Shown: positions 9,863 to 59,934, numbered from the stretch's first letter. The stretch is 64,000 nt of DNA from Guillardia theta CCMP2712 (GCF_000315625.1 NW_005434668.1:505808-569807), one strand, 5' to 3'. Numbers and translations: made by a program. Notes: generated by a model not told the origin, from the letters alone.

Positions 9863-10758
9863 TTATGCCTCTTCGCCTTCAGAACGGGGCGACAGAGCTT
9901 CCTGTAACACAACGTTCAGGGGCCATGCTTTGGTCGCACAGCAAGGCCTGTTCACACGGCACACTCGCATACCTGCTTCGTACCCTGAACGTCTGCTGCG
10001 AGGAAATTAGGTACCCCTTCTTGAATTCGGAATCTGGACAACACGGAGATCAGGATGGTTCGAGAGGGTGGCAGCGAGGGGAAAATCTTTGCACATCATC
10101 TTCTTGGGTGATAAAACGGACCTTCTCTGTGTTGCAGGACAGACGAGCTGCCCCTCCATGACTTCTGTTTCGAATAAAGCTCTATGAAGCGCTCGGAACA
10201 TGTGGACGTCGCCGTCGTTGCAGGCGCTGCTGCAGTGAGGTCGCGCCATGCATCACACAAGGCTAACACCTGATCACTTCCGCCATGTCTTGTGGAAACT
10301 GGCGCTCAAGGCCGATCGATTCCTCCCCACCGACTGCCTGCAGGGCATCCAAGAACACCTGCGGAGCAGCATGTAACCCTTCATCCTTCCTCTGCCTCCG
10401 CCGCCGCCCCTCCACACCTTCCAGTTCAATCTCTCCAGCAGCGAGATGATTGTGTCTTGATCCACCTTGCTCGGCCTGATCTCTGCTCGCTCCACTTCGA
10501 GAGCCAGCGGGTATCTCTGCGTTCAGAGCAGCGTCAGGGCTGGCCTTGCGGCAGGAGCGCTGGCTGCACCTGCTGCTTGGTCAGACCAGGCACCGGCGAC
10601 GCGAGGAGGTTGTGGGTGAAGAGTTTCATTCCTCCTCGCAAGCGGAGCAGAGATGCCTTGCTGTCAGAGGAAGCCTCGCTGACGCTGGGCCCCGCTTCTC
10701 CGGGCCAGCTGCACAACACGGCGAACAGAACCAGCAGCGAGGCGCCGCGACTTGACAT
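9863..10758 (-). CDS. TRM112: TRM112 methyltransferase activator with N-terminal signal peptide + LRLRGG presequence
   Basis: MKLFTHNLL...YPL...LLERLNWKV...FRALHRALFETEVMEGQLVCPATQR|RFRIQEGVPNFL match Trm112; preceded by MSSRGASLLVLFAVLCSWPGEAG...SLLRLRGG. Confidence 0.88.
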
Positions 10759-11872: not shown

Positions 11873-14800
11873 ATGCTCCGTCTCATCGCTTGCTTTTCTC
11901 TTTTCCTCTTGTCCTCTGGGTTTCAAGGAGTTTTCCATATGCAGAGCAGGAGCAGGAGTCTCCTCCTCTCCTGCCGCCCCTTCTACCTCAGAACTTCCCC
12001 TCGACGCGCTCACTCCAACTTGGCGAGCACCCGCATGCAACAAACGTCGGTCGGGGTAGGACCTTTGCCGACGGGATGGGGAGCAGAGCTGGGGCTGCAG
12101 GAGCAAGATCTTCTTCCTCAGCATCCTCGTCTGCTCACAGGCGCTCTCGACAACGGACTTCGTGAGTAGTGGGGAGAGGGGACAAGGAGGAGCGAAGGGG
12201 AGGAGAAATTTGTGTATTTGGAAAAGTTCTCAGAGATTACTCTGACTCTTGGTCAGGCTATTCGATCCTCGAGAATAGGAACCCAAAGAACAGATTCTAC
12301 GCCAACCTTGAAGTTCATTCCGGCAGTTTAGACGAGGACGACGAACAGCAGGTTGAGCATGCAAAGGAGGAGGAGCAGGAGGAGTAGGACAGTAGAGGAG
12401 GAACAGGAGGAGTAGGAGAGGGGAGGAAGAGTAGAAGAAGTGAGAAGGAGTAGGCGAGGAGAAACAAATAAAGAGTAGGATGAGATCGAAGGTGTGAGGA
12501 TGAAGAGAGCAACAGACAATAAGGAGTAGAGATGCGAAGATGCAAAATGCCACGAGCGAAAAAATCTGGAGGAGCAGGAGGAGCAGGGGAAGATAATGAG
12601 TGTGTGAATAGCTGATAGAACATATCAGGGGATCGCGCATTTCTTGGAGCATGTGCTCTTCTTAGGTACAGAGAAATACCCCAAGTCAGGAGACTTCAAA
12701 AAGGTTCGTTTACTCCTCCACCACCTCCTACCCATCCTCTTGCTCCCATCAGCTCGCTCCCAGTGATTGTTATCACCATCATCATCATCGTCTCCTCCTC
12801 CTCCTCCTCCTCCTCCTCCTCCTCCTCCTCCTCCTCCTCCTCGTATCATCGGCTCTTTTCATCGTGTAAATGCACGTTCCTTTCTCTTCCTCGCTCTCTT
12901 GTCTTCCTCCTCTGCTTCCTGCTCATCCTCTCCTTCAGGTCCTCTCTCGCCTCGGGATGAGCCAGCTGGCTGACGCCAACGCTTACACCGACTTTCGCTC
13001 CACCGTCTACACGCTCAGCGCACCAACTCGAGGAAGCGAGAAGAGGTCGGACGGAGAGAGGGAAGGGATGGGAGCGATGATAACGGAAGAGTTGCAGGCA
13101 CGCTTATGACATGGAGAAACTTTCTGGTGCAAGAAGAGACACATTGTTCCGTGCTGGTAATCTCCTCCTAACCCTCCTCCTCCTCTCTCGCCTCCTCCTG
13201 CTTCCTCTTGTCCCCAACCCCTTCCCTCCCCCACTCTCTCATCTCGCCCCTCTCTTCTCTCTCCTCCTTCCCCTCCGCTCTTCCCCTCCCTTTCAGATAT
13301 CAGGAGCAGCAGTTGAAGCTCCTCCTCCCCCTTCCTCGCTGTTTCTGTTCTAATTGCTGCTTGTACTTGTCTGGGACAGGGCTCGTCGAGTCTCCAGCTA
13401 CAATCAAGACACCTACGCAGCTGGAGGAGGAAGAGGGAGGGGAGGAGGAGGAGGAGAGAGGGAAGGGAGTTGAGGCTGCTGAGGACAACGTGGGGCTGGT
13501 GATCGACCTGCTGCATCAGATGACGTTCAAGGCTCTGATCCGGGAGGAGGACGTGGAGCGTGAGAGGAACGCTGTGCTCAACGAGATGCGAGACTCGAGC
13601 GACATCAGCGAGAGGATCGCGAGCAAGTTCTACCAGCAGCTCTTTGCTGAGACTCTCCTTCCCCGCCGCTTCCCCATCGGCAAGCTCGAGATCGTCCAGC
13701 GAGTCAACGCGGACGGTCTGCGGCGCTTCTACGAGCAGCACTACTTCCCTTCCAACATGCACCTCTTCCTCGTCGGCGACTTTGACGCCCACCGCGTCCT
13801 CCAGCACATCTCCTCCTCCTTCTCTGCCGAGCCGCCGGGCCCTCGCGCTCCTCCCTCGCACTCCCGCAGGGACTCGCTGGCGTGGGCAACGCCTCCTGGT
13901 CCGCTCCCTCTCTGGCCGTTGCGAGGGGCTCGGGTCGAGCATACCTTCGGCTCCCCCCCGTCGGTGCGGTATGAGCAGATCTCGCACTCGCAGGTGTCGT
14001 CGTTCTCGCTGACGCTGACGATGAAGGAGGAGCTGGAGAGCAACGTACTCGTGCGACATGTCTTCGAGGAGCTCGTGGACAGCCTCGTTGGCATGGCGCT
14101 GGAAGGGAGGTTCGAGGAGCTGCGCACCCGGGGAGGCGCCGCGGCGGTGGAGAGCGTTGACTGGATGTTCCTCAACTCAGCGCGTGAGGGGTGTGTGCTC
14201 AACTCGCTTGTGGTGACAAGCGAGGGGAGGAGCTGGAGGAGAGCTGCGCGGGTCTTCGCCAAGACCCTCCAGGAGCTGATCAGCTTCGGGCTCGTGCAGT
14301 CCGAGCTGGACCGCCTGCTGCGATCGCTGGTGAAGCAGTACAAGACGGACGTGGAACAGGAGGAGACGATGGAGTCTGACGAAGTGATGGAGGAGTTGAT
14401 GGAGTGCGTGGAGGCAGGGGACGCGTTCATGTCGGCGGGGCAGAAGTTCGAGCTGGTGAGGAGGATGGAGGAGGCAGTCACGCTGGAGCTCGTCAACCAC
14501 AGGGTCCAGCAGCTCTTCTCATTCGCTTCCCTTGCTGGCCGCAACTCAGAACTTTGCGCCTGGTTCGTGTGCGCGCCCAAGAGGGAGGGGCGAGCGCTGA
14601 AGGAGCTGAGCGAGGCGACGCTGCGGGAAGAGATGGAGAAGGCGACGGCGCGTCTTGAGCCCTACCGGGACGCGTCGGTCGTTCCCTCGTTCCTGTGCGA
14701 GGACGAGGAGATGGACGAGCGGATGCGGCGGCTGCAGCCATGCTTGGTGCCAGTGAGGTCGATGAGGACGGATGGGACGGAGAAGGAGGAGGGGACTGAG

Positions 14801-16243
14801 GTCCTGAGGGACCCGGGGACGGGGGTCAGGTTCATGGAGCTGAGCAACGGGATGCGAGTCACGGTGAAGGAGACGAGCTTCCAGAAGAAAGAGTTCGGCA
14901 TCGAGATCCGAGCGACGGGAGGGAGGGCGACGGAAGTGGCGGCGGGGATGAAGAAGGGTGCAGTGATGCTGGCGATCCAGGCACAGCTGAGGAGCGGGCT
15001 AGGGCAACACGACGAGGAGACAACAAGGAGGTACACGCAGCTGCACGCGATCGGGTTCGACGGCAGCTGCTCCATTGAGCAGTCCTCTTGCGAGATCGCC
15101 GCCTCCTCCTCCGAGCCCAACGCCCTCCGCCGAGGCCTCGAGGTCGCCCACTTGCTGCTGCGGGACTTCGCGGGGGAGGATCGGGCGCTGAGGAGGGCGA
15201 GGAGGGAGCTGAAGCTGCGCTGGGAGGCGATGGAGGAGGACATGGAGGTCCTTGTGGCTCGCACCATGATGCAGCTCCTCGTCGACCCTTCCGTTGATGC
15301 CTACGACTCCCTCAGCCTCCTCGTCTCTCCTGCCGACGCCGCCGCCCTCTCCCTCCACGACCTCCGCGAGGCCTTCCTGCTCGAGTTCGACCCCAGCAAC
15401 CTCGAGGTCGTGCTCACCGGCGACTTTCCTTCTGAGACTCTGCTGGACGACGTGCTGCGCTACCTCGGAACCCTCGAGACCCGAGCGCACAAGCTCCCTG
15501 CCCAGCAGGAGCTCAGCAAGTTCTCCTCCCCTCCTGGTGTCCTCCGGCCGCGAACCGCTCAAGTGCAGATCCCCGACGACTCACAGAGGACGTTCGTGTG
15601 CCTGGGCTTCCGCTCCCTCAACAGGTGGGGCTACAGCGCTTACGAGGAGGGGGAGGAGGGGATGGGGAGGAAGGACAGGTGGGAGGAGCACGGAGCGATG
15701 CACGCGAGTCGTTGTTTGAATCTGGTGGTGGACATGCTGAACAACCGGCTCTACGAGGAGATCCGCGAGAAGCACGGGCTCGTCTACTCCGTCAGCCTTA
15801 GCTGGGAGCCCTTCCTCCACCACCCCTACGGCCTCCTCACCGTCTCCCTCTCGCCCTTCCCCGACAGGATGGAGGAGGCGATCGAGCGCGTGCTGGGGGT
15901 GCTGGAGAAGTTCGTGGCCGAGGGCTTCAGCCGGGAAGAGCTGGAAGCGTCGCGGGGCCCGACGGTCAAGGAGGTGGAGGAGAATCTGAGGACCAACGAC
16001 TACTGGACGAGCCTCGTCGTTGGCATCCAGTCGCGCGGGGCCCTACCCAAGTCCTGCCGCTCCATCCAGCACATCGCCGACAGGTATCAAAGTCTGACGG
16101 AGGAGGAGGTGCTGGAGGTGGGAAGGCGAGCGCTGCGAGGGCTCAGGGAGCAGCTGGTCGTGGTCAAGGGCCTCAGCGATCCAAGCTTCTCCTCCGTCTC
16201 CGTCTTCCTCGAAAACGAGGACGCGAATGAAGGGCCCCGTTGA
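11873..16243 (+). CDS. SPP: Plastid stromal processing peptidase (M16 zinc metallopeptidase), bipartite presequence; multi-exon
   Basis: GALDNGLR|YSILENRNPKNRFYANLEVHSGSLDEDDEQQ|GIAHFLEHVLFLGT (HXXEH), NAYTDF, RRFPIG, ELSNGMRV, NNRLYEEIREKHGLVYSV; signal peptide MLRLIACFSLFLLSSG followed by F. Confidence 0.85.
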
Positions 16244-41084: not shown

Positions 41085-42315
41085 CCTGAGTTCGGATTGC
41101 AGGATCGTACAACAAGAAGGAAGTTCAGTAGTCCTCAGTCTACTGAATCACATGCAAACCATGTTGTCCTACGTCTCTTGCCATTTTCTGTTTGTGGACT
41201 TCTAATGACCATTTCATCCAAATCGCGTCCCAAGACGTGTCGTGAGTATGTCAGGTAAGGGCCCATCAAGTCCGATCAACCCAGTCAGCAGTACATTCGT
41301 GTCCTCCTCCACCTCTCTCGCTCTTCTCCTCGCTCCTCCTCTCCATCCGGCCTGCCAAGCGCTGGCATCTTGTCGGAGAGAAGAGACTGGTACAAACAGT
41401 TATCACTCTCGTTGAATTGTAACGAAGAGTCGTTATATTACCGTTATCCTCTGCTGTCTCTCGCGGACTTGCCAGCTCAGCCCCAGAAAAGAAATTCGAT
41501 CTGGGGTACTGCACAAGCAAAATACTTTGATAAGACCCTATATAAATTCAAAATTGTTATTTCATATAGTTTAGTTACTCAATTACTGATACAATTTTAA
41601 CTAAACTATATGTGATGTGTGAAATTGTAGGACCCCTTCTTCATCATCCTCGTGCGCGTCGCCATGGGGGATGAATGAGGGAGGGGAAGGGATGCAGCTA
41701 CTGCGCTTCTCCTCCTCCTCTTTCGACATCAACACCGACACCAACACCAACATCAACATCAACAACATCAATCTCATTAACCTCGATCAATTCTTTTATC
41801 ATGCTCCATTTTTGTTCTTTGACTCGCCCCCTGTCGTTTGCCTTGTCACCGCTATTCCTTAACAGGCTCTTGACATCTTCAAACATTCTTCTTTTGATAG
41901 CTGATTTACTCCTCTTTGTCTTGTCAGTTTCTTCCTTCTGCCTACGTGATATATCCCGTATTCATTCTCTCTACTCCCCTTTGCTGTTCATCAACTTGGA
42001 CGATCCTGTATGGGATTTCTAGTACATGTGTTTGAACGTATTCTTGTTGTTGAATTGATACTTTCACGTCATCTCTCTGTGCCAAACTTCTACAAATGTG
42101 ATTCTGCTGGAAGAGCTGTAAATTTCACACGAGTGCATTTCGTAAAGAGTCATGCTGATGTTGAACTTGACGTTATCGTGAATGTTTGAAAAGCCATGAT
42201 GGATGACATTTCTTACGCGTTACGACAGGTTGAGTGTGACGCCTTGTCCTGTGACCAGCTGGTGGTATCGAGCAGCTGGAATTAGTGGAGTTTCAACTTC
42301 ACTGATCTCGTTGAA

Positions 42316-45300
42316 ATGTCCGCCAGCAACTCAGAATTCCTCACGAAGTTTGAGACAAAGAGTAATCGTGTGAAAGGTTTGAGCTTCCATCCTCGTAGAC
42401 CATGGATCGTTGCGAGTTTGCACAACGGTGTGATCCAGCTGTGGGATTATCGTATGGGAACCCTCCTTGATCGCTTTGAAGAGCACGAGGGGCCAGTGCG
42501 TGGGGTGAATTTCCATCAGACGCAGCCACTTCTTGTATCGGGTGGTGATGATTACAAGATCAAGATCTGGAATTACAAGCTCAGACGATGCCTGAAGCCT
42601 GACTTGTTGGGGCATCTTGACTACATCAGGACTGTTCAGTTCCACCACGAATATCCGTGGGTGGTCAGCTCTTCTGACGATCAGACTGTGCGTATCTGGG
42701 ATTGGCAGCAGTCTGGCCGACCATGTCTTGTAGTGCTCACTGGCCATAATCATTACGTGATGTCTGTTCAATTTCATCCAAGAGAAGATCTCATCGTTTC
42801 TGCATCGTTGGATCAGACAGTCAGAGTGTGGGATATTTCTGGCCTCAAGAAGAAGTATGTTGGACACGGTGTGGACGACATGCAAGGACAAACCAGCGTC
42901 CCGAAGATTGGTGCTGACCTTTTTGGGAGCACAGATACCACTGTGAAATATCTCCTTGAAGGCCATGATCGCGGAGTGAATTGGGCATCATTCCACCACA
43001 CGCTTCCCCTCATTGTGTCGGGGGCGGATGACAGGCAAGTCAAGCTGTGGAGGATGAACGACTCCAAGGCTTGGGAAGTAGACACGCTTCGTGGACACGT
43101 GAACAACGTGTCTTGCGTTCTTTTCCATCCCAAGCAAGAGCTGATCATCAGTAACTCCGAGGATAAGTCCATCCGAGTGTGGGACATGTCCAAACGCACT
43201 GGTGTGCAGACATTCCGACGGGAACAAGACCGATTCTGGATCCTAGCAGTTCACAAGGACCAAGGTCTTCTTGCTGCTGGTCATGACAGTGGCATGCTCG
43301 TGTTCAAACTTGATCGTGAGAGACCTGCCTTTGCAATGAATGAGGGCGGGCCCAATACAGGCTCTCAGCTGCTCTACGTCAAGGAGAGATACTTGAGAAT
43401 GTTTGAGCCTGGTTCAGGACGAGACATTCCCCTTGTGTCTATCCGAAGGTCATCGGGTCCAAACAGTGCCCCCCGTTCCATGGTTTACAACGAGGCTGAG
43501 AGGAGCGTCTTGATGTGCACAGACGCCGAAGGCGGATCCTACGAATTGTACCAGATCCCTCGCGATGCCTCCAAGGGCGCACAGGAATCTGTGGACTCTA
43601 AACGGGGTCTTGGATTGGCAGCTGTCTTTGTGGCTCGGAACCGATTCGCTGTTTTGGACAAGAGCAGGCAGATTCTGATCAAGAACCTGAGCAATGAGGT
43701 GACCAAGAAACTCTCACCACCCCATGCAACTACGGACATGATTTTCTATGCTGGAACTGGCATGTTGCTTTGCAAAGCAGAAGACAAGATCACTCTCTTT
43801 GATTTGCAGCAGAAACGGGCCATGGGAGAGATCACTTGCCCTAATGTCAAATATGTTGTTTGGGCGAGCGACATGAAACACGTTGCGTTCCTGAGTAAGC
43901 ACACCGTGGTATTGGCAAGAAGGGATGCCCAAAAGCTGGAGCATTTGGCCACTGTCCACGAGACCATTCGTGTCAAAAGTGGTGTCTGGGAAGAAGGAAG
44001 CACCAAGGCCTTCATCTACACGACTTTGAACCATGTTAAGTTCTGTTTGACTCAAGGGGACAGCGGCATTATCAGAACCCTTGAAGCCCCAGTATATCTC
44101 TGCAAAGTGATGGGAAACAAACTCTTCTGCTTGGATCGGGAAAGCAACACTCTGACGCTTTCTATTGACAAGACGGAATTTTTGTTCAAAGTGGCATTGC
44201 TGGATCGCAACTATGATGAAGTTCTTAGAATCATCAAGCGCTCCAAACTTTGTGGGCAGGCAATTATTGGATATCTTCAGAAGAAGGGCTTTCCAGAAGT
44301 TGCGCTTCAGTTCGTGAATGATGAAAAGACGAGATTCAATCTCGCGATTGAATGTGGCAACATTGAAGTTGCATTGGCGTCGGCTTCAGCGCTGGATGAC
44401 AAGGACTGCTGGCACAAACTTGGTGTTGAGGCTCTCCGACAAGGAAATCATCAAATTGTGGAGATGGCATATCAAAAGACCAAAGACTTTGAGAGATTGT
44501 CATTCCTGTATTTGATCACAGGCAATACCGAGAAGCTCAACAAGATGTTACGGATCGCTGAGATGAGGGGTGACGTCATGGGAAGATTCCACAATGCTTT
44601 GTACCTCGGTGATGTGAATGAGAGGATCAAGATTTTGAAGGATCAGCAACAGCTTGCTCTGGCCTACCTCACTGCTGTGACCCATGGAGTTACAGATGCT
44701 GCAGCAGAGATTGAAGCTCTGATTCCGGAGGAACTGCTACCTTCGTGTAAGCCGAAAGCTGACGCTTCTCTTCTGTTCCCTCCAACCCCAATCTTCAGAG
44801 AGAACAATTGGCCGTTGCTGCGTGTCTCCAAGGGCTACTTTGATGGACCTGTCGAGAAAGTGAGCGAGTCGAAGCTCAACGAAGAGTTGGATGGAGATAT
44901 TGGTGGTGGATGGGGTGGAGATGACTTGGATTTGCCCGGTGAAGGTGGAGGCGATGTTGTCCAAGAAGAGGATGCGGACATGGGCGGAGAAGGATGGGGC
45001 GGAGATGGCGTGGATCTCGAGGATGGAACAGGAGAGACCGGGGATGGATGGGGTATCGATGAACTGGATCTGGATCTCCCAGGTGGGGGAGCAGCCACAG
45101 GCAAGAGTCCGGGAGGAAACGTTGGAGGATTTTTTGCCCCGCCTACGATGGGAACACCAGCAGCTCTTCGGTGGCAACAGGCTTCCAATGTAAGTTTCAC
45201 TCTCAGGAGACCGTGCTCCCCCTTACCTCCTGTTCTAGGTACCTGGCGAGCATGTCGCTGCCGGTTCCTTCCAGAGTGCGATGGAGTTGATGAACCGACA

Positions 45301-46585
45301 AGCCGGTGTGGTCAACTTCGAGCCGATGAAACCTGTGAGTCCATGCAAGCTGAACCATGATAGCTCATAGTGCGTTACAGATCTTCACAAGCGTCTACCT
45401 AGGTGCTCAGGTGCAACTCGAGTTTCAATACCTCGACTTTGAGACTGATCATTTTTCCATTTCAGTCCTTCTTGTCTGGAAGTCCAGGTGCCGCTATCAT
45501 GGAATGCGCGATGCATCGCAACAACGAAAATTATTTCTGGAGTGCAAGAGGTCGTGAACTCGAGAATCTCTTTGTCCTGTGCTTATGGCGCGTCTACAGG
45601 TACTGATGGAATGCCTGCGGTCTGTGCAACAGTGCCTACTCTTACCGACCGTATCAAGTCTGGATACAAGGCCTTCACTGAGGGCAAGCTTCCTGAAGCC
45701 TTGCAGATCTTTGTCTACTCGTTGCAGGTACAATAGATGACTTGAGCTGGTGTTTATCCTGACGTCACCAATTCAAGTCGGTTCTGGTCGCGTGTGTTGA
45801 TTCAAAGCAAGAGCTTGACGAGCTGCGAGAACAAATGGGCATCTGCAAGGAGTACATCACGGCGATCATCTTGGAGACAACGAGGCGCGAGCAGTTCAAG
45901 GAAGATCCGACCCGCAACGTCGAGTTGGCGGCTTACCTCACGTAATCTCCTTTGTGACATGGGGGATTGAGTCAGCTCATTCTCCTCTTGTGCAGGCACT
46001 GCAACTTGCAGCCCTTGCACTTGCTCATCTCGCTGAGGTCGGCCATGAGCAGTTCAGTGAAGATCAAGAACTACAACACGGCTGGGTCGTTCTGTCGCAG
46101 GTTCGTATTGACAAGGCAGAGATATCAAAATACTAAGAAGCTATTTACAAGGCTGTTGGAATTGAACCCCAAGGCTGAGCACAAGGAGCAAGCTCTGAAA
46201 GTTCTCAAAGTGTGCGAGGCGAACCGTTCCAACGAAGTTGAGCTGCAGTATGACGAGCGAAACCCTTTCGTTGTGTGCACGTGAGTCCCCTGCCGTCATA
46301 CTTGCCGCCATGCTGGCCTTCTCTCCTATGACTCTGGCCCTGCAGAAAAAGCTTCGTTCCGATATACCGCGGCAAGCCTATTACGTATGCCTTGAACTCC
46401 CAGTCTCACTTCGGCTAATTGCTGCTCACAGGCGCTGTGGATTCTGTTCGGCTCCCTTCGATCCTGCGTTCAAGGGCCAGGTGTGCGCAGTCTGCCAAGT
46501 CGGAGAGATTGGCTTGAAGGGAACGGGGCTGATCAACTCAAGACACCAACGGAACAAGGTAGAAGGCGTTGAGAGTCGACATTGA
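42316..46585 (+). CDS. COPA: Coatomer subunit alpha; multi-exon 3' part
   Basis: [91 protein letters not shown]-terminal [10 protein letters not shown]. Confidence 0.98.
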
Positions 46586-46689
46586 TGTATGACCTGTTGA
46601 CAGCAATCCTCCAACGACATGGGAGACTTTGATGATTGAGCGGGATAGCCCCAATCCGCACGCTCTTCCCGACTGCTGGCCTGGTCTCA

Positions 46690-49087
46690 TTACACGCTTG
46701 CAATGAAGGGTGTTTCGTCCACTACAAGAGTTTGATGCCAGTAGGGAAGTGTGTTGAATCTCACCACCTGCGCTCCTGTAAGACTTTTCTTTTCTTCTTT
46801 CAACATCACCTTAGAGTCTTCGAGCATCGCCCGAACGGCTAAGTAGTGCACGGGGCCATCGCCCCAGCGATGACGGAAAAACCCTCCTGAGTCATCGAGG
46901 GCTTTGAAGATAGCGAGATACTCCTGCGAGCGCCACACAGCCATGGCGCTAACCTCGAAGTTGGTGTAGAAGAATGTCCTGGACCCTCGTGAGATTCGGC
47001 GCAGGTCGACTTATCCACACCTTCCCCACGCTTTTTGCGATCCAACAGCGGGCAGGTTGGGCAACTTCAGTCTGAACCATCTGTGAGCTACATCTCTCCG
47101 AATGGTCAGGTTGCTCTCACCTGGTCGCCTCCTGCATGAACGTCTCCCACAGATTCACAACGAACTTGCGTTCCTCACGACCTGTCGTGATGTACCCATA
47201 AGATTGCTGGCGGTCAGCCAAGTGCTGGATCGGGTCGAGGGGGAGTGGAGCGATGAAGAAAGAGTCAACGTCGAGCCGCATGTAGAAGTCCAGGCTCTGC
47301 CAAGAAGCTGAGAGGAGAATGTTTGTACAGGTAGGGGCTGCCTGCATTGCTGGATGGTTGTAAATCGGCCCAGAGAAAAATCGACACATGGCTCGGTAGC
47401 CAAGACCGTAGCCTAGAAACTTTCTAGAGAAATTCCCGTGCTTGTCCTGTTGGTCCGATGGGACATCCATGTTAATCTGAGGAGACAAATTAGAACTGCA
47501 GGTTGCCGACGACAACACCTTGTGAAATGAGATGTTCAGGTTGGGTCGGTTCAACTGCAGTATGGTAGACTCTTCAAGGAAGTCATAAAAAACATAGACG
47601 GGATAATAGCGGTGTAATGTGAAGTAATTCTTCTCAAGCAAGTTTAGACTCTGATCGACATGTTAATATCAATGCGATCCGCGTTCACCGAACCTGATTC
47701 AAGTCTTGAATATCCTCGTCAGCCTTAGAAGTAAGGTATACAATTGCAGCTGACAGCGACTGATCAGACTGTGCGATGCTGATAATTCTCCTCTCTTTCA
47801 GTTGATGTAGATCGTCATCATGCCATACGATTGAGGACGGGAAGGCTTCAGCAGTCATGCCTTCCCGCACTCTCAGCAGGTCGTGATAGTACCCGACCTC
47901 ACCTTCCGGCTGCTATGTCCGTCAAACAGTTGGAAAGTCAAGAGTGATCATGAAAGCACCTGGCGCAACCATCGCAGCAGCTCCCTGGCATGAAAGTGGT
48001 CCCCTTGCCTCATCAGAGTCGTGGCGGCAGCAACGAACGGGAAGGGATGCGAAGGATCCGACAGGAAAGCTCGCCTGCGCCGCAAGATGAGCCGGTCAGA
48101 GAGTGGCTCGAGAGCCTTTGAGCTTACTTGAAGAAGGCAAGAGCTTCTGCTGCTTCTCCTTGACGAGAATATGCCATGCCGAGGGAGATTAGAGTGTCTA
48201 CCTGTGCAAGAAATCAGAAAACAAATCATTTACTGCAACTTCCCACACATCCTCCATCGCTTCCAACGCCTTTCTCCACAAAACCACAGCATTCTCCCAG
48301 TCATCCTCATCTGAATACACTTTTCCAAGGTTGAATTGAAACTTGGACAAGCTTGAGTTGGAGATGAAACCTATGTTTCTGCTAGAGAAGTTAAAAAAGA
48401 CTTCGATATTGCTCCGAATTACTTGTAAGTGAGATCGATTGCTGCAGCACAGAAACCTTTCGCCTCCGCAGTCCTTCCAAAGTTTCGCAGGACATTGCAA
48501 ACGTCATTGTAGAGATGCACAGCTGCTCTGTCTACGTACGACGTGTCGGACAGCTTGACTCGTCGGATCGCAGCTAACGAATGCTTCAAAACTCTCAGAG
48601 CTGACGATGGAAAACCTTCGTCCCGAAAGTTGTAGGCTATCTTGCAGCCGAACATGGTAAGGTCTGTCACGAACTTTTTGAGATGACCGGAAGGATACGT
48701 GCGTCCTGCTGAGTTGAGAACGCTGTTTGCTACTCGAGATGCCAACACCAGTGCTTGGAAAGACAAGAATTCGTTGGGCCGCAGGGTCTCCTCTGCGTTG
48801 TCTTTCACGTTTGACTTTCCATTCTCACAATCTGCCAACATGCGCAGCGAGATGTACTCCATCTCCTCGTCCCTTTTCTCTCTTGACATTCTGAGCAACG
48901 TGCGTGCCGCTCTTGCTGCCATGTCGAAATTACCCTGCTGAGAAAGTTGAACGGCCTCCCTCAGCACGTCGCTGTCTGAGAGCTCGTGAGCTCCCACCAT
49001 CAACACGAAAGCAGCAATAGCGAGCATGACGAAGCATGATGGCACAGCCCTTGCATATAAGCTGAAGAGCATTCGCCCTAGCTTCAT
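46690..49087 (-). CDS. TPR-like domain + GT15 (KRE2/MNT1-type alpha-1,2-mannosyltransferase); multi-exon
   Basis: YRAMCRFFSG, DFYMRLDVD, FYTNFE, GGFFRHRWGDGPV are GT15 motifs; N-terminal hydrophobic segment and TPR-like helices (FNLGKVYSDEDDWENAVVLWRKALE). Confidence 0.75.
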
Positions 49088-53078: not shown

Positions 53079-53428
53079 GGGTGGCGTGCGAAGCTGCTAG
53101 TGCCGGGGGCAAGCGTGAGGCAGAGAGAGAGGGGAGAGGGAGAGGGAGAGAGGGAGAGAGAGAGAGAGAGAGAAGTGGGGGAGAGGAGAGTAGAAGAGGA
53201 AGGAGGTGATACTGATTGTGCGTATAATGGTTTATCACCACACACCTTCGCAAGGGAGTTGACGTATTGACATCAGTAGTGTATGGCAATCAACTATGAC
53301 TTCCTAAACAACACAAACGATATGATGCTGCCTTGACAAAACAATTCAAATCATGATAAGTCTGTCCGAAATGAAACTCAAAGATAGGCTTTCATTGGAA
53401 TAGACCTTTGACATCCTGTCGATTGGAT

Positions 53429-56400
53429 ATGGCGAGAGAGCTTTCTCGACTCGCCTCTTTCGGTGTATTTTTATTTTTTATGCTCCTTCTTGTCAGCTTG
53501 AGTGAGGGGTTGTTGTTGAATCCCCGATTTGTATCGCTTGACAGCACGTCGACCAAAGCAAGTTTGCATAAACATGCTCGACTCGTTCTACGTGGGGGCG
53601 ATGACATGCTGCAATCTGATGCCGACAGCGTTATGGAGGATGCAGAAAGCGAAGAGGAAATCGAGCAGCTGAGCGAAGATCTTCCCGCTACTGAGACTCT
53701 CAAAGCTAGTGATGCCCTTCATCCGAGAGGTGCGTCAGAGTTGGAATCAAGTATGTCAGCTCAAACGAAACGAAACCTTTCAACGAAGCTTTCCTCATTG
53801 CGACGGGATCTGCCCATCGATCTCAACGAGACGTTGACATTCCAGTTACTTGATGTAGATTACACGCGCCCACAGAAGTCAAGTGAAACGATTGATCAAG
53901 GAGATTTCACCGTGAACGCGTTTGGGGTCACTCAAGAGGGTAAATCGGTACATGTTGCCATCTCAGGAGTTCTCCCGTACTTCTTCGTAAACCTTCCCAA
54001 GGCTTTAAATGAAGAGGAATGTAAGGTATTTCTTACGAAAGCTATCAAGAAGTTCGAATCGCAAGCAAGTCAAAACTACGGGTATTCGAGCTATCAGATC
54101 TCCGAATCGTGCAGGATTGTTAATTGCAGTTACGTCAGAAGAAGGAGCATTTGGGGCTATCAAAGAAATGAAAGTCATTACATGCAGATACTCTGTTCAA
54201 ACCCAGAGACTGTCAAGAGAGCAGCTACAATATTTAGACACTGGGATGCCTCACTTGACATGCAGGAGATATTTCCCAAGGGTCCAATCGTCTTCCAAAC
54301 TTTTGAGTCCAATGTGGACCCAATTACGCGGCTAACGACGGACTCAAATATCGTCATGTCTGGCTGGGTACAAATACCTGTCAACGATCTAAAGTGGAGC
54401 GATTCAAGAACAAGACTGTCACATTGCGACATCGACGTGGCTGCACATTTTTCAAAAGTGCAAGCTCTGCCCGAAAAAGAAGACGTCTCCCCCTTCTTGA
54501 TAGGATCGTTTGATATTGAGTGCGTGCCTGAAGGTGGAAGGGGGTTCCCAGATCCTAGCAAGCCATTGGACAGATGTATTCAAATCGGAACCATCGTCTA
54601 TAGATTCGGCGACTCAAAACCTTTAGCGAATATTGTTTATTGTTTAGGATCAGCATCTGTTGATGATGAATCTATCCACATTCGGGAATTCGAAAGAGAA
54701 GAAGATCTTCTCATGGCTTGGCAGCACCTTGTCGTTCATGAGCTTGACTTGGACCTCTTGACTGGGCACAACATCTTCAAATTCGATCTCAACTACATAG
54801 CTCGGAGGGCCCAAGTTCTAAAACTCCCAGAATTCTTCGAACTTGGTAGAATGAAAGGGAAGTATACTGCTATTAAGACCACGGATAGCCAAAGCAAGGC
54901 ATTCGGCCATAATCAATTTCACTACCTTCCGATGACAGGGAGGATGCAGATGGATATTTACCAGGTCATGACCAAACAACACAAATTATCTTCTTACAAA
55001 TTAGACAGCCTTGCTAAACACTTTCTTGGGATGCAGAAGGATGATGTCTCGCCAAAACAGATCTTTGAATTCCAGGTGAAAGATGCCTCTCACAGAGGCA
55101 TCGTTGCAAAGTATTGTGCGAAAGATTGTGAGCTTGTTTATCGCCTCATCGAGCGACTGGATGTTCTTCCTCAATTCCTGGAGATGTCCAAGGTCACAGG
55201 GGTAACTATGAACGACCTCAACACGCGTGGCCAGCAGATCAAAGTTTTCACTCAGATAGTACGTGAGGCTCGAGCGTCAGACTTCGTGATCCCTGACATG
55301 CGAGCTGCCCCCACATCAAGGGATGACGTGCAGTACCAGGGCGCTTTTGTGCTCCCTCCGCAACGCGGCATCTACCACGAACCGATCGCTACCTTAGACT
55401 TCGCGTCGCTTTACCCCTCCATCATCCGAGGAGACAACTTATCCTATGAGACTCTTGTGCAGAACGAGTGTGAACTAGACGAAGACACTCCGGTCTCTTG
55501 CATCCAAGTCGATCATGGAACGATCTGGGATGCTGAGATCACGATCGTGAAGGGTTCGTGCAGGTGTGTTGGAGCACTAGATGACGTTCAGTTTGTAAAG
55601 CTGATGTCCATGGTGGAGCCGGGAATGAAAGTTGTTTTCGGGACTTCCAAGAAGACAGATCCAGTTGTTGGTCCGACTTATCAAGTGAAGAGCGCAGGCG
55701 GAACTGCAATCGAGCTGGTTGACCCAATCCATCACATTGAAAGGGAGTTGACAGTCAAACGCGTCAAACTCTTGAAGGAGTACACCTACAAGTACGTACA
55801 ACACGTGGAAGGAATCCTCCCAAGAATCTGCAAGAATCTGCTCACTGCAAGGAAGAAGGCGAAGAAGGAAATGGCTCTCACGGACGATCCCATCAAGAAG
55901 GGCTTGTTGAATGGCAAGCAGTTGGCCCTCAAAGTCTCTTGCAACTCCGTCTATGGATTCACTGGCGCTGGCAGGGGTATGCTGCCATGTTTGCCGATCG
56001 CTTCATCGGTCACTGCTATCGGCCAGCAAATGATCAAGACGACAAGTCAGACTGTGCAAGAAAACTTCAATGCTACAGTCATTTATGGGGACACGGACTC
56101 GGTGATGGTGAACTTTCACTGCGGAGAAGGGCCGGAAGCTCTGAAGAAAGCTCTCGAGCTCGGGCAGAGGGCTGCAAAACTCGTCACGAGCAAGTTCAAG
56201 CCTCCCAACGAGCTCGAGTTCGAGAAGGTGTACATGCCGTACATCCTTTACAGCAAGAAGAGGTATGCGGGGCAGATGTATACCAGTCCAGACAAACCCG
56301 ACAAGATCGACGTGAAGGGACTTCAAGTTGTTCGGCGCGACAACAGTGAACTTCAGAGGGATCTGATGAAGAACCTGATCAAGACGATGGTGAAGGAAAT

Positions 56401-57189
56401 CACACAAGATGAGCTGACATGCATGGACAGTGGGGCAAGCAAACTCGAAGTGCTTAAGTCGCGCATTTCAGATCTAGTCCGTTCCTATAATCAAGATCTT
56501 GTACAAGGAAAATTCCCTTTGGAGAAGTATGTGATCTCGCAATCCATCTCCAAGAAAGGCTACGAGAAGACAAATGCTGCAGGCTTCAAGAGCGCAGCCC
56601 TCGGCCATGTCAAACTTGCAGAGAGGATGGAAAAACGAGAGCCTGGGACCGGCCCGGTAGCAGGGGACCGGGTGCACTACATCATCGTGAAAGAAGCCCC
56701 CCACCTCTCGCACATCAAGAATCGAACAATCGATGGCGTGACTTACGCGGCCAAGGACTGGCCCCCTCGCCATGAGAGGTGCGAAGATCCTACGTACGTG
56801 AAGGAGAAGAATTTGACAGTCGATCTCGCATACTATTTGGAGAACCAGCTGAAAAATCCGGTGACGTCACTGCTCGAGCCTGTCTACGACAAGAGCGAAG
56901 AGCTCTTTCTTGAAGCAGAGCGAAATCTCAAGAGCAAGTTGTCTGGAAACTTGATGTTGACCTCATTCTTTGCTCCAAAGCAGACAGAAAATGCACGTTC
57001 CAAGGTAGATGGAAAGAATGACGAAGTGAAGAAAGACAAGGGCAAAGGTAAGTTTGAAGTGGCAGGGACGAAGGTGAAAGACAAAGTTGATGTTTCTCTT
57101 CAGGTTGTGCAAGCGGTGGGACTCGAGTGATGGAGGACTTCTTCAAGAAAAAGAGGAAGTCAGATGAAAACAAGGAGGTATGCAGCTGA
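53429..57189 (+). CDS. Family-B DNA polymerase (Pol delta/NCLDV-like) with signal peptide + RLVLRGG presequence; one predicted 3' intron (57048-57103)
   Basis: ExoI SFDIEC, ExoII GHNIFKFDLNY, ExoIII KYCAKDC, DFASLYPSII, KQLALKVSCNSVYGFTG, YGDTDS, KKRYAG, GDRVHY; no CysA/CysB tail. Confidence 0.93.
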
Positions 57190-57316
57190 TGGAGGGCATC
57201 ATGAAAGAAACCTGAGGGAGATCTTTAATTTTGTACAAATGGATTTGCAAGAATCTCATCCTTGCACTTCTCATTGAGAGACACGTCGTGCTCTGTTTAG
57301 GAGATGAAAGTGAAGT

Positions 57317-59431
57317 TCACGTCTTTAGCCCATCGTAGCAAGTCTTTCCAGCGACATTCGTGAGTGTATCGTCTGCTCCTTTTGAGATCAGATAGTCTGC
57401 GAGCTCCTTGTACCCGACCGAGAAGGCGAAGTGCAGAGCTGTGTTGCCCTGGCGATCAGCCTGATTGGGATCGGCTCCCATACGCAAAAATCTCTTGGCT
57501 AGTTTCTTGTTCCCGTTCTGAGCTGCGACCATCAAGGCCGACTTGCCGCTGGCGTCTCTAGCGTTGACGTCAAAGCCTTGAGCGAGCACCTCCTCTATGT
57601 CCGCCTTGTTCTTGTGCCTTATGTGCCCGAAAAACGCTTCCAAGTCATTCGCGCTCAATTTCTTGACTGGCACAGCACTGGAAGCATCGTCACGGGGACT
57701 GTTGTCCCTACTTTCAGGTGGCTCTGTCTCTGGTCCTTCCTCCATGCCTTCTCCAACCGTCAACCCTCCTCCTTGCTCCACATTGTTCCGAAAACTCTCT
57801 GTGGCTGATGCCTTCGATTTCAAAGTTTCGAATTCCTTCCGTCGGTCTGAGATGACCTGAGAAGATTTGGCGTGCTGCGGGCTTGTCTTGCCGAGCTCAG
57901 AGAGGAGGTAGACCTGCTGCACCTCCTGCCCTGTCTTCTTCCTCGCAAAGGTCGCCTGCTCTTCTGTCTCCTTGCGATCCTGCAGCCGGATGCCCTCCAC
58001 GTTGGACCTGAGCCTCCGAGAATCTTTCAGTTTGCTCTGAAGTTTCGCGACAAGAGGCGAGAAGACGCTGTCATCGCTTCCTTCTGCCGCGACAGCATGC
58101 GAGGAGGCCTGACGCTTCGTCGCAGACAAGGCAGACTTGGTTCTTGATGTTCTTAGCTCCTCAGTATGTGCGTCCCCTCTCGCTCCTTCAGCACCATCCG
58201 TGCTGAAGATGACCCTGGGGTTGGTGAGGTCATCCCCCTGCAGGTGTCGTCGGATCGTGTCTTCGATCCAGCTCTCGAGATTTTCAAACATTCGAACTTT
58301 CTCAACCGCTCTCCAGACTCCCTCTTCAAAGTCTTCCTCATCATCCTTGAGCGTTTGCCCTGCAGAGGTCAGCAAACCTTCACCTGACCTCTCCTCGCTC
58401 CTCGTGCTTGCTCTTGACAGGTAGAGCGACCCAGGACCTCGGACCTGCATGGCATTTTGCTCCATGTCCACGGACTTCAACTGCATCTCCTTCATCGCAG
58501 GCCCTTGACTTGCTCTCGCGCTCCTGTACACCAGGCCCAAGGGTTTCTGGTCACCGAACGACAGAGACGATTCTCGTAGAGTGGTCAGAGACTGGGCGAG
58601 TGAAGGAGGAGAGTCCTCGGGCTCTCCTTCCTCGAACAAATGAGGGGCGATGTAACTGTCCGTCTTCATGAGACGCGGCGACGTCAACTGGCCCATGTCT
58701 GCCTCTGCGATCCTGCGGCGTGATAGGCTGATGGGCGGCAAGCTGACCTGCGATTGAGCATGAAGCACTTGAGAATGCACTTGCTGCTGAACCGAATCCA
58801 GCGAAAGTTGGGGATATGATGCCGCAATCTCGTTGACCTGCCTCAATCCAAACTGATGTGCGATGGCTGCAATCTTCGTGTCGAGTCTCGAGGTGGTTCG
58901 GGTGAGGGACGACAGCCGCTTTCTGATAGCTGATCGCTCTTCTTCCGAGACCAGGTTGGAGAGATCCTCCTCGCTGCGGACGTTGTTCCTCGTTATGATC
59001 TCCGCCCTCCGGCTCGAGGATCGACGCCAAGGGAGGTCAACACTGGACGACCTCTTGCTACGAGACTTGTTGCTTCCTTTCTTGCTCGCATCCGTTCGAA
59101 TGTTTTCGTAGTCTCTGCTGCGTTTCTCGTGCATTGTCATCGCCTCGAGCTTCTCATGCCGCCTGATGCTCGCAACCTTCATGTGATGATCTGACTCTAT
59201 CATCTCAACAGTCGCTGACTTCTCGAGCAAAGCCTCCAGCAGTTCCTCGTAAGCCTCCCGTATCTTGTTTCCCAGCATCTGCTTTTGTTCAGCGCTTCCC
59301 ATGGTCGACTGAGCTTGTCGAACAACTTTTCTCTGCTGTTCAACGTACATTTGATCTGACAGAGCAGCAAGAGCATCGCGGATGTCCCTGGTTGCCATAC
59401 TGCTGCAATGAGCGAAGCCTCTAGAGGTCAT
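57317..59431 (-). CDS. Protein with C-terminal ankyrin repeats
   Basis: Intronless 704-aa ORF; GKSALMVAAQNGN, GADPNQADRQGNTALHFA. Confidence 0.8.
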   Translation of the reverse strand: MTSRGFAHCSSMATRDIRDALAALSDQMYVEQQRKVVRQAQSTMGSAEQKQMLGNKIREAYEELLEALLEKSATVEMIESDHHMKVASIRRHEKLEAMTMHEKRSRDYENIRTDASKKGSNKSRSKRSSSVDLPWRRSSSRRAEIITRNNVRSEEDLSNLVSEEERSAIRKRLSSLTRTTSRLDTKIAAIAHQFGLRQVNEIAASYPQLSLDSVQQQVHSQVLHAQSQVSLPPISLSRRRIAEADMGQLTSPRLMKTDSYIAPHLFEEGEPEDSPPSLAQSLTTLRESSLSFGDQKPLGLVYRSARASQGPAMKEMQLKSVDMEQNAMQVRGPGSLYLSRASTRSEERSGEGLLTSAGQTLKDDEEDFEEGVWRAVEKVRMFENLESWIEDTIRRHLQGDDLTNPRVIFSTDGAEGARGDAHTEELRTSRTKSALSATKRQASSHAVAAEGSDDSVFSPLVAKLQSKLKDSRRLRSNVEGIRLQDRKETEEQATFARKKTGQEVQQVYLLSELGKTSPQHAKSSQVISDRRKEFETLKSKASATESFRNNVEQGGGLTVGEGMEEGPETEPPESRDNSPRDDASSAVPVKKLSANDLEAFFGHIRHKNKADIEEVLAQGFDVNARDASGKSALMVAAQNGNKKLAKRFLRMGADPNQADRQGNTALHFAFSVGYKELADYLISKGADDTLTNVAGKTCYDGLKT

Positions 59432-59934
59432 GACCGAGACTGTCTATACGTCTTGCGCTTCTTGTCGTTTCCGACAATTCTTGCCCCAACTTTCCTCGTC
59501 CTCGCCTACCGCATCCTCTCCCGTTTACTCCTTTCCCTCCCGCCTGCCATCATCAGGCCCTCAAAGGGTTGCTAACGGTTGTGGCCCACCTCCCCTGACC
59601 GACCAAGGTTGGGCTATGAGGACTATGTGAAGGAGAAAAAGTGAAGCGGGCCATCCCTTCAAATTTGTGGCTTCCACGAAACCCACAAATGGCAGTTTCA
59701 CCCCCTTTTTAAACCACAAAAGAACCGGTACTCTGATAAAAAACCCATTCATAACACAATCAGCACACGTCCACGCTCTATCTCCACCCCCCTCCCCGCT
59801 CATGCAGGAAGAAGAGTTTCTGGGTCAGACCAGAAGAAGCAGTCAGTTCATAAGACTGAGCTCAGAGGACGAGGGTGCCCTGGGAGTCCTGTCAAGAAGT
59901 GGGAGGCGGTAAGAAGAACCCAGGCCCTGTCACT

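Follow-up and report, generated by a model that had tools for sequence, protein, structure and literature searches.

That a virus-type polymerase replicates a nucleomorph has been proposed before, for chlorarachniophytes. Suzuki et al. 2016 (PMC5635652) described a nucleus-encoded, virus-like POLD of Bigelowiella natans (JGI 138180), which was localized to the nucleomorph by GFP and proposed as its replicase. According to Harada et al. 2024 (PMC10877234), an organellar family-B polymerase is undescribed outside the chlorarachniophyte nucleomorph. Two nucleus-encoded enzymes also proposed for nucleomorphs, POP2 of Guillardia theta and chlnmPolA of chlorarachniophytes, belong to family A and are held to be auxiliary by the authors; POP2, for which G. 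theta and Hanusia phi were the only sources found, lacks a typical signal peptide (PMC10877234). Cryptophyte nucleomorphs encode MCM, GINS, and RPA (PMC6559170), and Onuma et al. 2017 (PMC5443833) state that no DNA polymerase gene is present there and that the identity of the imported enzyme has yet to be established. Here we analyze a stretch of 64,000 nucleotides of G. theta CCMP2712 nuclear DNA (GCF_000315625.1 NW_005434668.1:505808-569807, hereafter the window), which carries a gene for a 1234-amino-acid (aa) family-B DNA polymerase (PolB; 53429-57189, plus strand, one intron). A first-pass annotation made from the sequence had read this gene as a candidate nucleomorph replicase, possibly of giant-virus origin, without the chlorarachniophyte precedent.

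PolB is the best current candidate for the cryptophyte nucleomorph replicase. On balance, we favor the interpretation that it is imported into the periplastid compartment, replicates the nucleomorph, and was derived from a large eukaryotic DNA virus. The data presented here establish its gene structure, transcription, motifs, fold, and tree position and the conservation of its leader and tail, from which compartment, clamp binding, replicative role, and viral donor are inferred. Like B. natans POLD, it is a nucleus-encoded, delta-like family-B polymerase with viral affinity and an N-terminal targeting leader. The two differ in host supergroup and in endosymbiont (green rather than red in B. 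natans), and whereas POLD was seen in the nucleomorph by GFP, PolB is placed there by prediction from sequence. B. natans POLD was reported beside green-algal phycodnaviruses, whereas the nearest relative of the G. theta group is a metagenomic protein with a similar insert (P0125); a phycodna-like affinity of the G. theta group was not rejected by the approximately unbiased (AU) test (p-AU 0.51), in a comparison that did not contain the B. natans sequence itself. PolB resembles POP2 and chlnmPolA in being nucleus-encoded and proposed for a nucleomorph, but they belong to another polymerase family.

The kind of system is thus known from chlorarachniophytes, and the PolB sequence is probably already present, unremarked, in a published tree. 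The main text of Suzuki et al. is silent on Guillardia, but Fig. S8 lists two G. theta Pol delta entries; in its printed order, Guith1 179740 falls between the enzyme of B. natans and the block of eukaryotes (PMC5635652). This entry is probably the PolB gene. Because there are two Pol delta-like entries, a second G. theta copy would be available for the host nucleus. An NCLDV-like (nucleocytoplasmic large DNA virus) core protein was reported in Hanusia and Hemiselmis transcriptomes by Gallot-Lavallee and Blanc 2017 (PMC5294986) and may or may not be this polymerase. No paper naming this gene as the cryptophyte nucleomorph replicase was found in a search that did not extend to Curtis 2012 and Blanc 2015, which may bear on priority. 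Together with the corrected gene model, PolB provides a specific candidate for a stated open question on cryptophyte nucleomorph replication.

Gene structure and protein features

The PolB gene is real, conserved, and transcribed. Its open reading frame (ORF; 53375-57130) contains a single ATG, at 53429, which is preceded by an in-frame TGA (no other ATG occurs from the upstream stop to base 53440). Contigs of four runs (X1, X2, X3, and X4), whose RNA nature is only guessed, start at 53187 and are unbroken to 57045, and the 56-nt intron (GTAAGT..TCAG) is their sole joint. Contigs of X1-X3 also drop many GT..AG introns in genes near PolB. A raw-read run (X19) yielded few reads, at the PolB 3' end only, and is uninformative on expression level. 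The spliced frame stops exactly at 57189, as first annotated, and its C terminus agrees with that of a Hanusia transcript product (P0003); the gene is also nearly intronless as claimed, with its single intron near the 3' end. The ORF matches perfectly (100%) a partial NCBI model of G. theta CCMP2712, EKX53301.1 (P0002), which begins at residue 165, ends at residue 1164, and deletes residues 694-783 as an intron. The deleted stretch (55508-55777) is in frame and kept in the RNA-like contigs. EKX53301.1 has neither leader, nor insert, nor tail, which may be why targeting has been overlooked so far.

Table 1. Features of the PolB gene and its product (window coordinates)
Feature	Position	Strand	Evidence
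Exon 1, coding part	53429..57047	+	ORF, translation, contigs continuous 53187-57045
Predicted signal peptide, residues 1-27; likely cleavage after SEG, before L (alternatives after 23 or 25)	53429..53509	+	Hydropathy, -3/-1 rule script; 51% identical in Hanusia
Transit-peptide-like stretch to LRGG, residues 28-57	53510..53599	+	Basic, S/T-rich; RGG position same in Hanusia
Acidic linker, ~residues 58-120	53600..53788	+	14 D/E in 35 residues after RGG
3'-5' proofreading exonuclease domain, ExoI/II/III	54479..55168	+	Pfam PF03104; motif positions; model pLDDT mostly >85
Polymerase palm, fingers, thumb (DFASLYPS, KxxxNSxYG, YGDTDS, KKRY)	55169..56938	+	Pfam PF00136; Foldseek
~107-aa beta-rich palm insert, residues 684-790	55478..55798	+	Alignments; model pLDDT 75-97; retained in RNA-like contigs
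PCNA-box-like motif 1, NLMLTSFF	56948..56971	+	Pattern search; kept in Hanusia and P0004
Intron, 56 nt, GT..AG	57048..57103	+	Skipped in contigs of X1-X4
Exon 2, final 28 codons + stop, without Cys-rich C-terminal domain	57104..57189	+	Spliced translation; Hanusia P0003 C-terminus match
PCNA-box-like motif 2, TRVMEDFF, then basic patch KKKRK	57121..57159	+	Same in Hanusia P0003; function inferred

As judged from its sequence, PolB is an intact, active-type family-B DNA polymerase with a proofreading site. All exonuclease motifs (ExoI FDIEC at residue 361, ExoII GHNIFKFD at 446, and ExoIII YCAKD at 562) and polymerase motifs (DFASLYPS at 657, KVSCNSVYG at 835, YGDTDS at 886, and KKRY at 943) noted earlier are intact in the translation, with Pfam matches to DNA_pol_B (3.7e-118), exo1 (4.3e-45), and POL3_N. 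An alignment-based model reached a predicted local distance difference test (pLDDT) score of 88 (a single-sequence fold, with a pLDDT of only 34, was not used), and its top PDB matches by Foldseek are Pol delta. PolB is indeed like Pol delta (POLD1/Pol3) in domain order, POL3_N, exonuclease and polymerase motifs, and best PDB sequence and Foldseek matches. Unlike Pol delta, it has no CysA/CysB C-terminal domain (CTD), it has a leader, the palm insert, thumb inserts, and terminal PCNA-box-like motifs, and it falls outside the Pol delta branch. The absence of a Cys-rich CTD was confirmed: zf-C4pol (CysA/CysB) was not found by Pfam search, and there are only 2 Cys in the last 70 residues of the spliced product. 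A CTD encoded by a downstream exon, which would have spoken for a host Pol delta, is not there either.

The palm insert, which in the model appears as a confidently folded beta-rich unit, has a position and length common to the orthologues and P0125. Searching the ESM Atlas with it gave no usable match, and when it was used to search 121 candidates (678-2158 aa) for homologues, G. theta and Hanusia were the sole matches. The tail carries two motifs resembling the PIP-box consensus by which proteins bind PCNA, and two similar motifs are found in the tail of P0004. Of 96 CTD-less representatives (some of which are truncated Pol deltas), 56 have a terminal aromatic-pair motif of this kind, versus 2 of 75 CTD-bearing ones. 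The KKKRK patch is a possible nuclear-import signal. In being CTD-less, in its C-terminal aromatic-pair motif, and in sharing a CTD-less branch with a capsid-linked PolB, the G. theta enzyme is like the PolB of Nucleocytoviricota and Mirusviricota (although no labelled mirusvirus sequences were in the comparisons). It differs from Nucleocytoviricota PolB in lying outside the sampled NCLDV-like clade, and no named virus exceeds 31% identity in BFVD.

Among the best 120 of 6202 matches, four show 58-100% identity to PolB: the G. theta model, H. phi, and two ENA clusters (50 and 18 members). Five further fragments with 64-70% identity are found among the best 150 representatives. We call this orthologue group cryptophyte-like, G. 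theta and H. phi being its only named members. Identity between PolB and the full-length Hanusia protein (P0270) is 95-98% over the exonuclease and polymerase cores, against 33-51% over the leader. Two proteins labelled as coming from a Promethearchaeia (Asgard) metagenome-assembled genome (MAG), P0271 and P0285, cluster at 90% with the cryptophyte-like orthologues and are probably algal DNA in an archaeal bin.

Leader and predicted compartment

The signal peptide, RGG, and acidic linker recognized in the first-pass annotation were seen again by hydropathy and charge. The leader consists of a 12-residue hydrophobic core (Kyte-Doolittle 3.07) and 31 residues with 5 K/R, 2 D/E, and 7 S/T, followed by RGG; it was called by hydropathy, charge, conservation, and a -3/-1 script. 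The layout is kept in the four orthologue types that have an N terminus (G. theta, Hanusia, P0006, and P0305/P0307), and the metagenomic leaders of P0006 and P0305/P0307 likewise have a hydrophobic stretch, a basic S/T-rich stretch, and an RGG preceding an acidic linker. By hydropathy, charge, and conservation, these look like leaders of the bipartite type expected of periplastid proteins. Such a leader argues against the host nucleus and the mitochondrion, and the evidence on periplastid space versus stroma is mixed. PCNA-box-like motifs and a basic patch would be sensible only in a eukaryote-type nucleus. We regard the nucleomorph as quite probably the compartment of PolB.

Import of a virus-derived PolB into the plastid stroma (or dual targeting), where it would copy or repair plastid DNA, appears unlikely to us, even though the residue after the predicted cleavage site speaks for it. 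The -3/-1 rule favors cleavage after SEG in both named species, leaving Leu at +1 in G. theta and Phe at +1 in Hanusia. Alternative sites in G. theta would leave E or L, and the two metagenomic leaders have R and S at +1 (non-aromatic; read by eye, with uncertain starts). Plastids are not known to have a PCNA, whereas the PCNA-box-like motifs and the basic patch of PolB are conserved. According to a published rule, an aromatic residue or Leu at +1 is a stroma-entry signal, and its authors caution that the sites of cleavage are uncertain (Gile et al., PMC4494062). For its own DNA, the plastid is already served by cryptoPolA (PMC10877234); Pol III subunits are present as well in Teleaulax. Moreover, a leader of similar make-up, with LRGG at its end, precedes the Trm112-like product of another gene in the window, and the partners that Trm112 usually has are of eukaryote type.

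For PolB as a nucleomorph replicase, we propose the following route. Passage through the outer plastid membrane would depend on the signal peptide and passage through the second membrane on the transit-like stretch; cleavage near LRGG is predicted to free PolB of its leader. Entry into the nucleomorph would then be mediated by the basic patch of the tail. Once there, PolB may use the two boxes at its C terminus to load on a PCNA clamp, which the cryptophyte nucleomorph is taken to provide, and may act as a lone subunit alongside the nucleomorph-encoded MCM/GINS/RPA/RFC machinery. In Pol delta, the CTD binds the B subunit. PolB would have no need for the B and C subunits of Pol delta, because the CTD that they bind is missing.

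Phylogenetic position and competing explanations

Four trees were built, with 179 rows (FastTree), 80 rows, 40 rows (a careful tree, 842 columns), and 46 rows (including an archaeal outgroup as well as three polymerases from IMG/VR). The smaller sets are subsets of the 179 rows, from which CTD-less rows lying inside Pol delta in the largest tree (probably truncated) were left out, and insert columns were removed in the last three trees. In all four, the orthologues group with P0125, a metagenomic PolB of 1383 aa that is encoded on a 19.8-kb contig and shares 34% identity with the G. theta enzyme. Support in the careful tree is 100/100 for the orthologues and 100/99 with P0125, and CTD-bearing Pol delta is set apart by a branch with 100/100 support. 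Forced nesting with green-plant Pol delta, which stood in for red algae, was rejected both with P0125 (p-AU 1.5e-7) and without it (2.6e-6), in tests whose groups were named after earlier trees had been seen. In the archaeal-outgroup tree, the group lies in a 26-row CTD-less branch (Shimodaira-Hasegawa-like approximate likelihood-ratio test, SH-aLRT, 99), which includes a PolB flanked by two NCLDV capsid genes; the archaeal root falls inside Pol delta, probably an artefact, and was unused for direction. As judged from these sequences, PolB is not a canonical Pol delta.

P0125 shares the palm insert: insert columns are filled at 86-90 positions in 4 of 46 rows (the query, P0004, P0122, and P0125) and at 7-29 in 41 others, P0299 being cut off there. 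The inserts of P0125 and the query are 26% identical by alignment. A relative of P0125 (93%) is encoded on a 4.4-kb contig (L007, 1-4375), which contains the end of this PolB, an isocitrate lyase, and an ankyrin repeat, in gene-dense DNA with uninterrupted, closely packed ORFs and AATAAA signals. The isocitrate lyase has 46-47% relatives on eight viral contigs, six of which are giant-virus MAGs by name, and the nearest ESM Atlas clusters of P0125 are mostly viral. L007 may represent an undescribed lineage of large DNA viruses. We consider a viral donor for PolB likely.

Further searches brought in distant sequences. Scanning IMG/VR with the query gave six loci at 32-33% and no close relative, and with a 3-row alignment six distant loci; IMG/VR scans with P0125 and P0137 gave none, and a clade motif pattern gave 0. 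The proteins listed when P0125 served as query were Pol delta-like, none of them being more closely related to it. The GTDB scan returned only archaeal or bacterial PolB and one fungal-looking Pol delta. This Pol delta lies, fragmented and beside other eukaryote-like ORFs, on a contig labelled Deltaproteobacteria (L023, 8022-11017), which is probably a contaminant.

Besides the +1 residues described above, several observations weigh against PolB being a nucleomorph replicase of viral descent. The group lies outside the sampled 10-row NCLDV-like clade (98/98 without it), and a sister position to the NCLDV-like rows (p-AU 0.47) or the phycodna-like rows is neither rejected nor demonstrated. The trees contain no identified red-algal, cryptophyte-host, or B. 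natans sequence. Among the matches listed, the closest named proteins by similarity are eukaryotic Pol deltas (33-38%), and the best viral match in BFVD (31%) is no closer than Pol delta (32%). The P0125 branch is long (1.2-1.45), and BLAST of the insert alone gave no P0125 match at E<=10 among 418 proteins. No virion or capsid gene was seen beside the polymerase on the 4.4 kb of L007, and no viral gene was recognized among the window ORFs scanned. The proposal of POP2 for the G. theta nucleomorph (PMC10877234) also belongs on this side. The giant-virus origin suggested in the first-pass annotation therefore stands in part: the sister is virus-looking and the branch CTD-less, but the sampled NCLDV-like clade does not include the group. 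Its overall interpretation fared similarly, since the enzyme proved not to be a canonical Pol delta, has no CTD, keeps a leader of bipartite type and a tail with PCNA boxes, and is joined by a sister that looks viral, but no named giant-virus donor was found.

The same similarities could be explained by a nucleomorph replicase that arose from a fast-evolving eukaryotic Pol delta (of the red-algal endosymbiont or a host duplicate) and lost its CTD, P0125 being joined to it by long-branch attraction or by gene transfer from cryptophytes. Pol deltas are the best named matches, the 80-row quick tree places the group beside Pol delta (SH-aLRT only 30), and red-algal sequences were not identified in the set. 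We nevertheless hold this descent to be improbable. The AU tests and the 100/100 branch separate the group from green-plant and CTD-bearing Pol delta, the insert is shared with P0125, the tail is of virus type, and the cryptophyte-like branches are short (0.14-0.36), unlike those of a fast-evolving gene.

A role as an accessory or repair polymerase that reaches the nucleomorph, bulk copying being left to some other enzyme that is also imported (POP2, or else a Pol alpha, delta, or epsilon that has escaped recognition), seems less probable still. A primase or Pol alpha would be required in any case, and POP2 has been proposed for the nucleomorph, but Harada et al. themselves hold it to be auxiliary (PMC10877234). 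An intact proofreading site, PCNA-box-like motifs, and strong conservation suit a replicase, and the B. natans counterpart peaks with S phase (PMC5635652). The idea that PolB plays no part in an organelle and is a contaminant or was recently inserted by a virus, for which the single intron and the mirusvirus capsid genes reported in the G. theta assembly (PMC10827195) might speak, is largely refuted by host-type neighbors, a spliced intron, transcription in several runs, orthologues 58-95% identical with the leader kept, and a guanine-cytosine (GC) content like that of the flanks.

Returning to PolB as an imported, virus-derived replicase, we tentatively extend it, with slightly less than even confidence, to a broader proposal: both classical nucleomorph lineages would have independently swapped a multi-subunit replicase for the single-subunit, PCNA-binding polymerase of a large DNA virus, the cryptophyte donor being an undescribed deep-branching lineage (that of P0125 and L007) and the transfer preceding the split of the sampled cryptophyte-like lineages. 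If true, virus-type polymerases would copy both of two nucleomorphs that evolved separately, which would suggest a rule, namely that a one-chain, clamp-binding viral enzyme is easier to retarget over membranes than a multi-subunit Fe-S enzyme. PolB may also bear on nucleomorph mutation rates and on the lifetime of stolen cryptophyte plastids in Mesodinium.

Neighboring genes and LRGG-type leaders

PolB lies among host-type genes. A COP-alpha-like gene (42286-46700, +) starts with an exon of 2.96 kb (42227-45189), after which come many introns of ~50 nt, and an ankyrin gene is covered by contigs without a joint. Intron poverty, which had been put forward as a sign of gene transfer on account of a long uninterrupted ORF in intron-rich surroundings, was rejected as evidence: the ORF is real, but long exons are not unusual nearby, as the COP-alpha-like first exon and the ankyrin gene show. 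An M16 peptidase gene (13172-16243, +) also has a 3-kb open frame. The PolB 3' end and the convergent ankyrin gene (57317-59443, -) abut or overlap at 57130-57233; contigs terminate at 57233 and others start at 57216, and in some assemblies the two genes are joined into one.

Two other genes in the window have a hydrophobic leader ending in LRGG. No literature linking LRGG to Guillardia signal peptides was found. LRLRGG resembles the C terminus of ubiquitin, and the LRGG-type motif could be a processing site for imported proteins. In the multi-exon Trm112-like gene (9900-10757, -), the hydrophobic leader ends in LRLRGG directly before a second Met, at which the Trm112-like part starts; one exon matches PF03966 (E 0.0099, below the family cut-off). 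Its product is likely a periplastid protein, as judged from this leader. The third gene (~63853, -) has a hydrophobic leader followed by LSLRGG.

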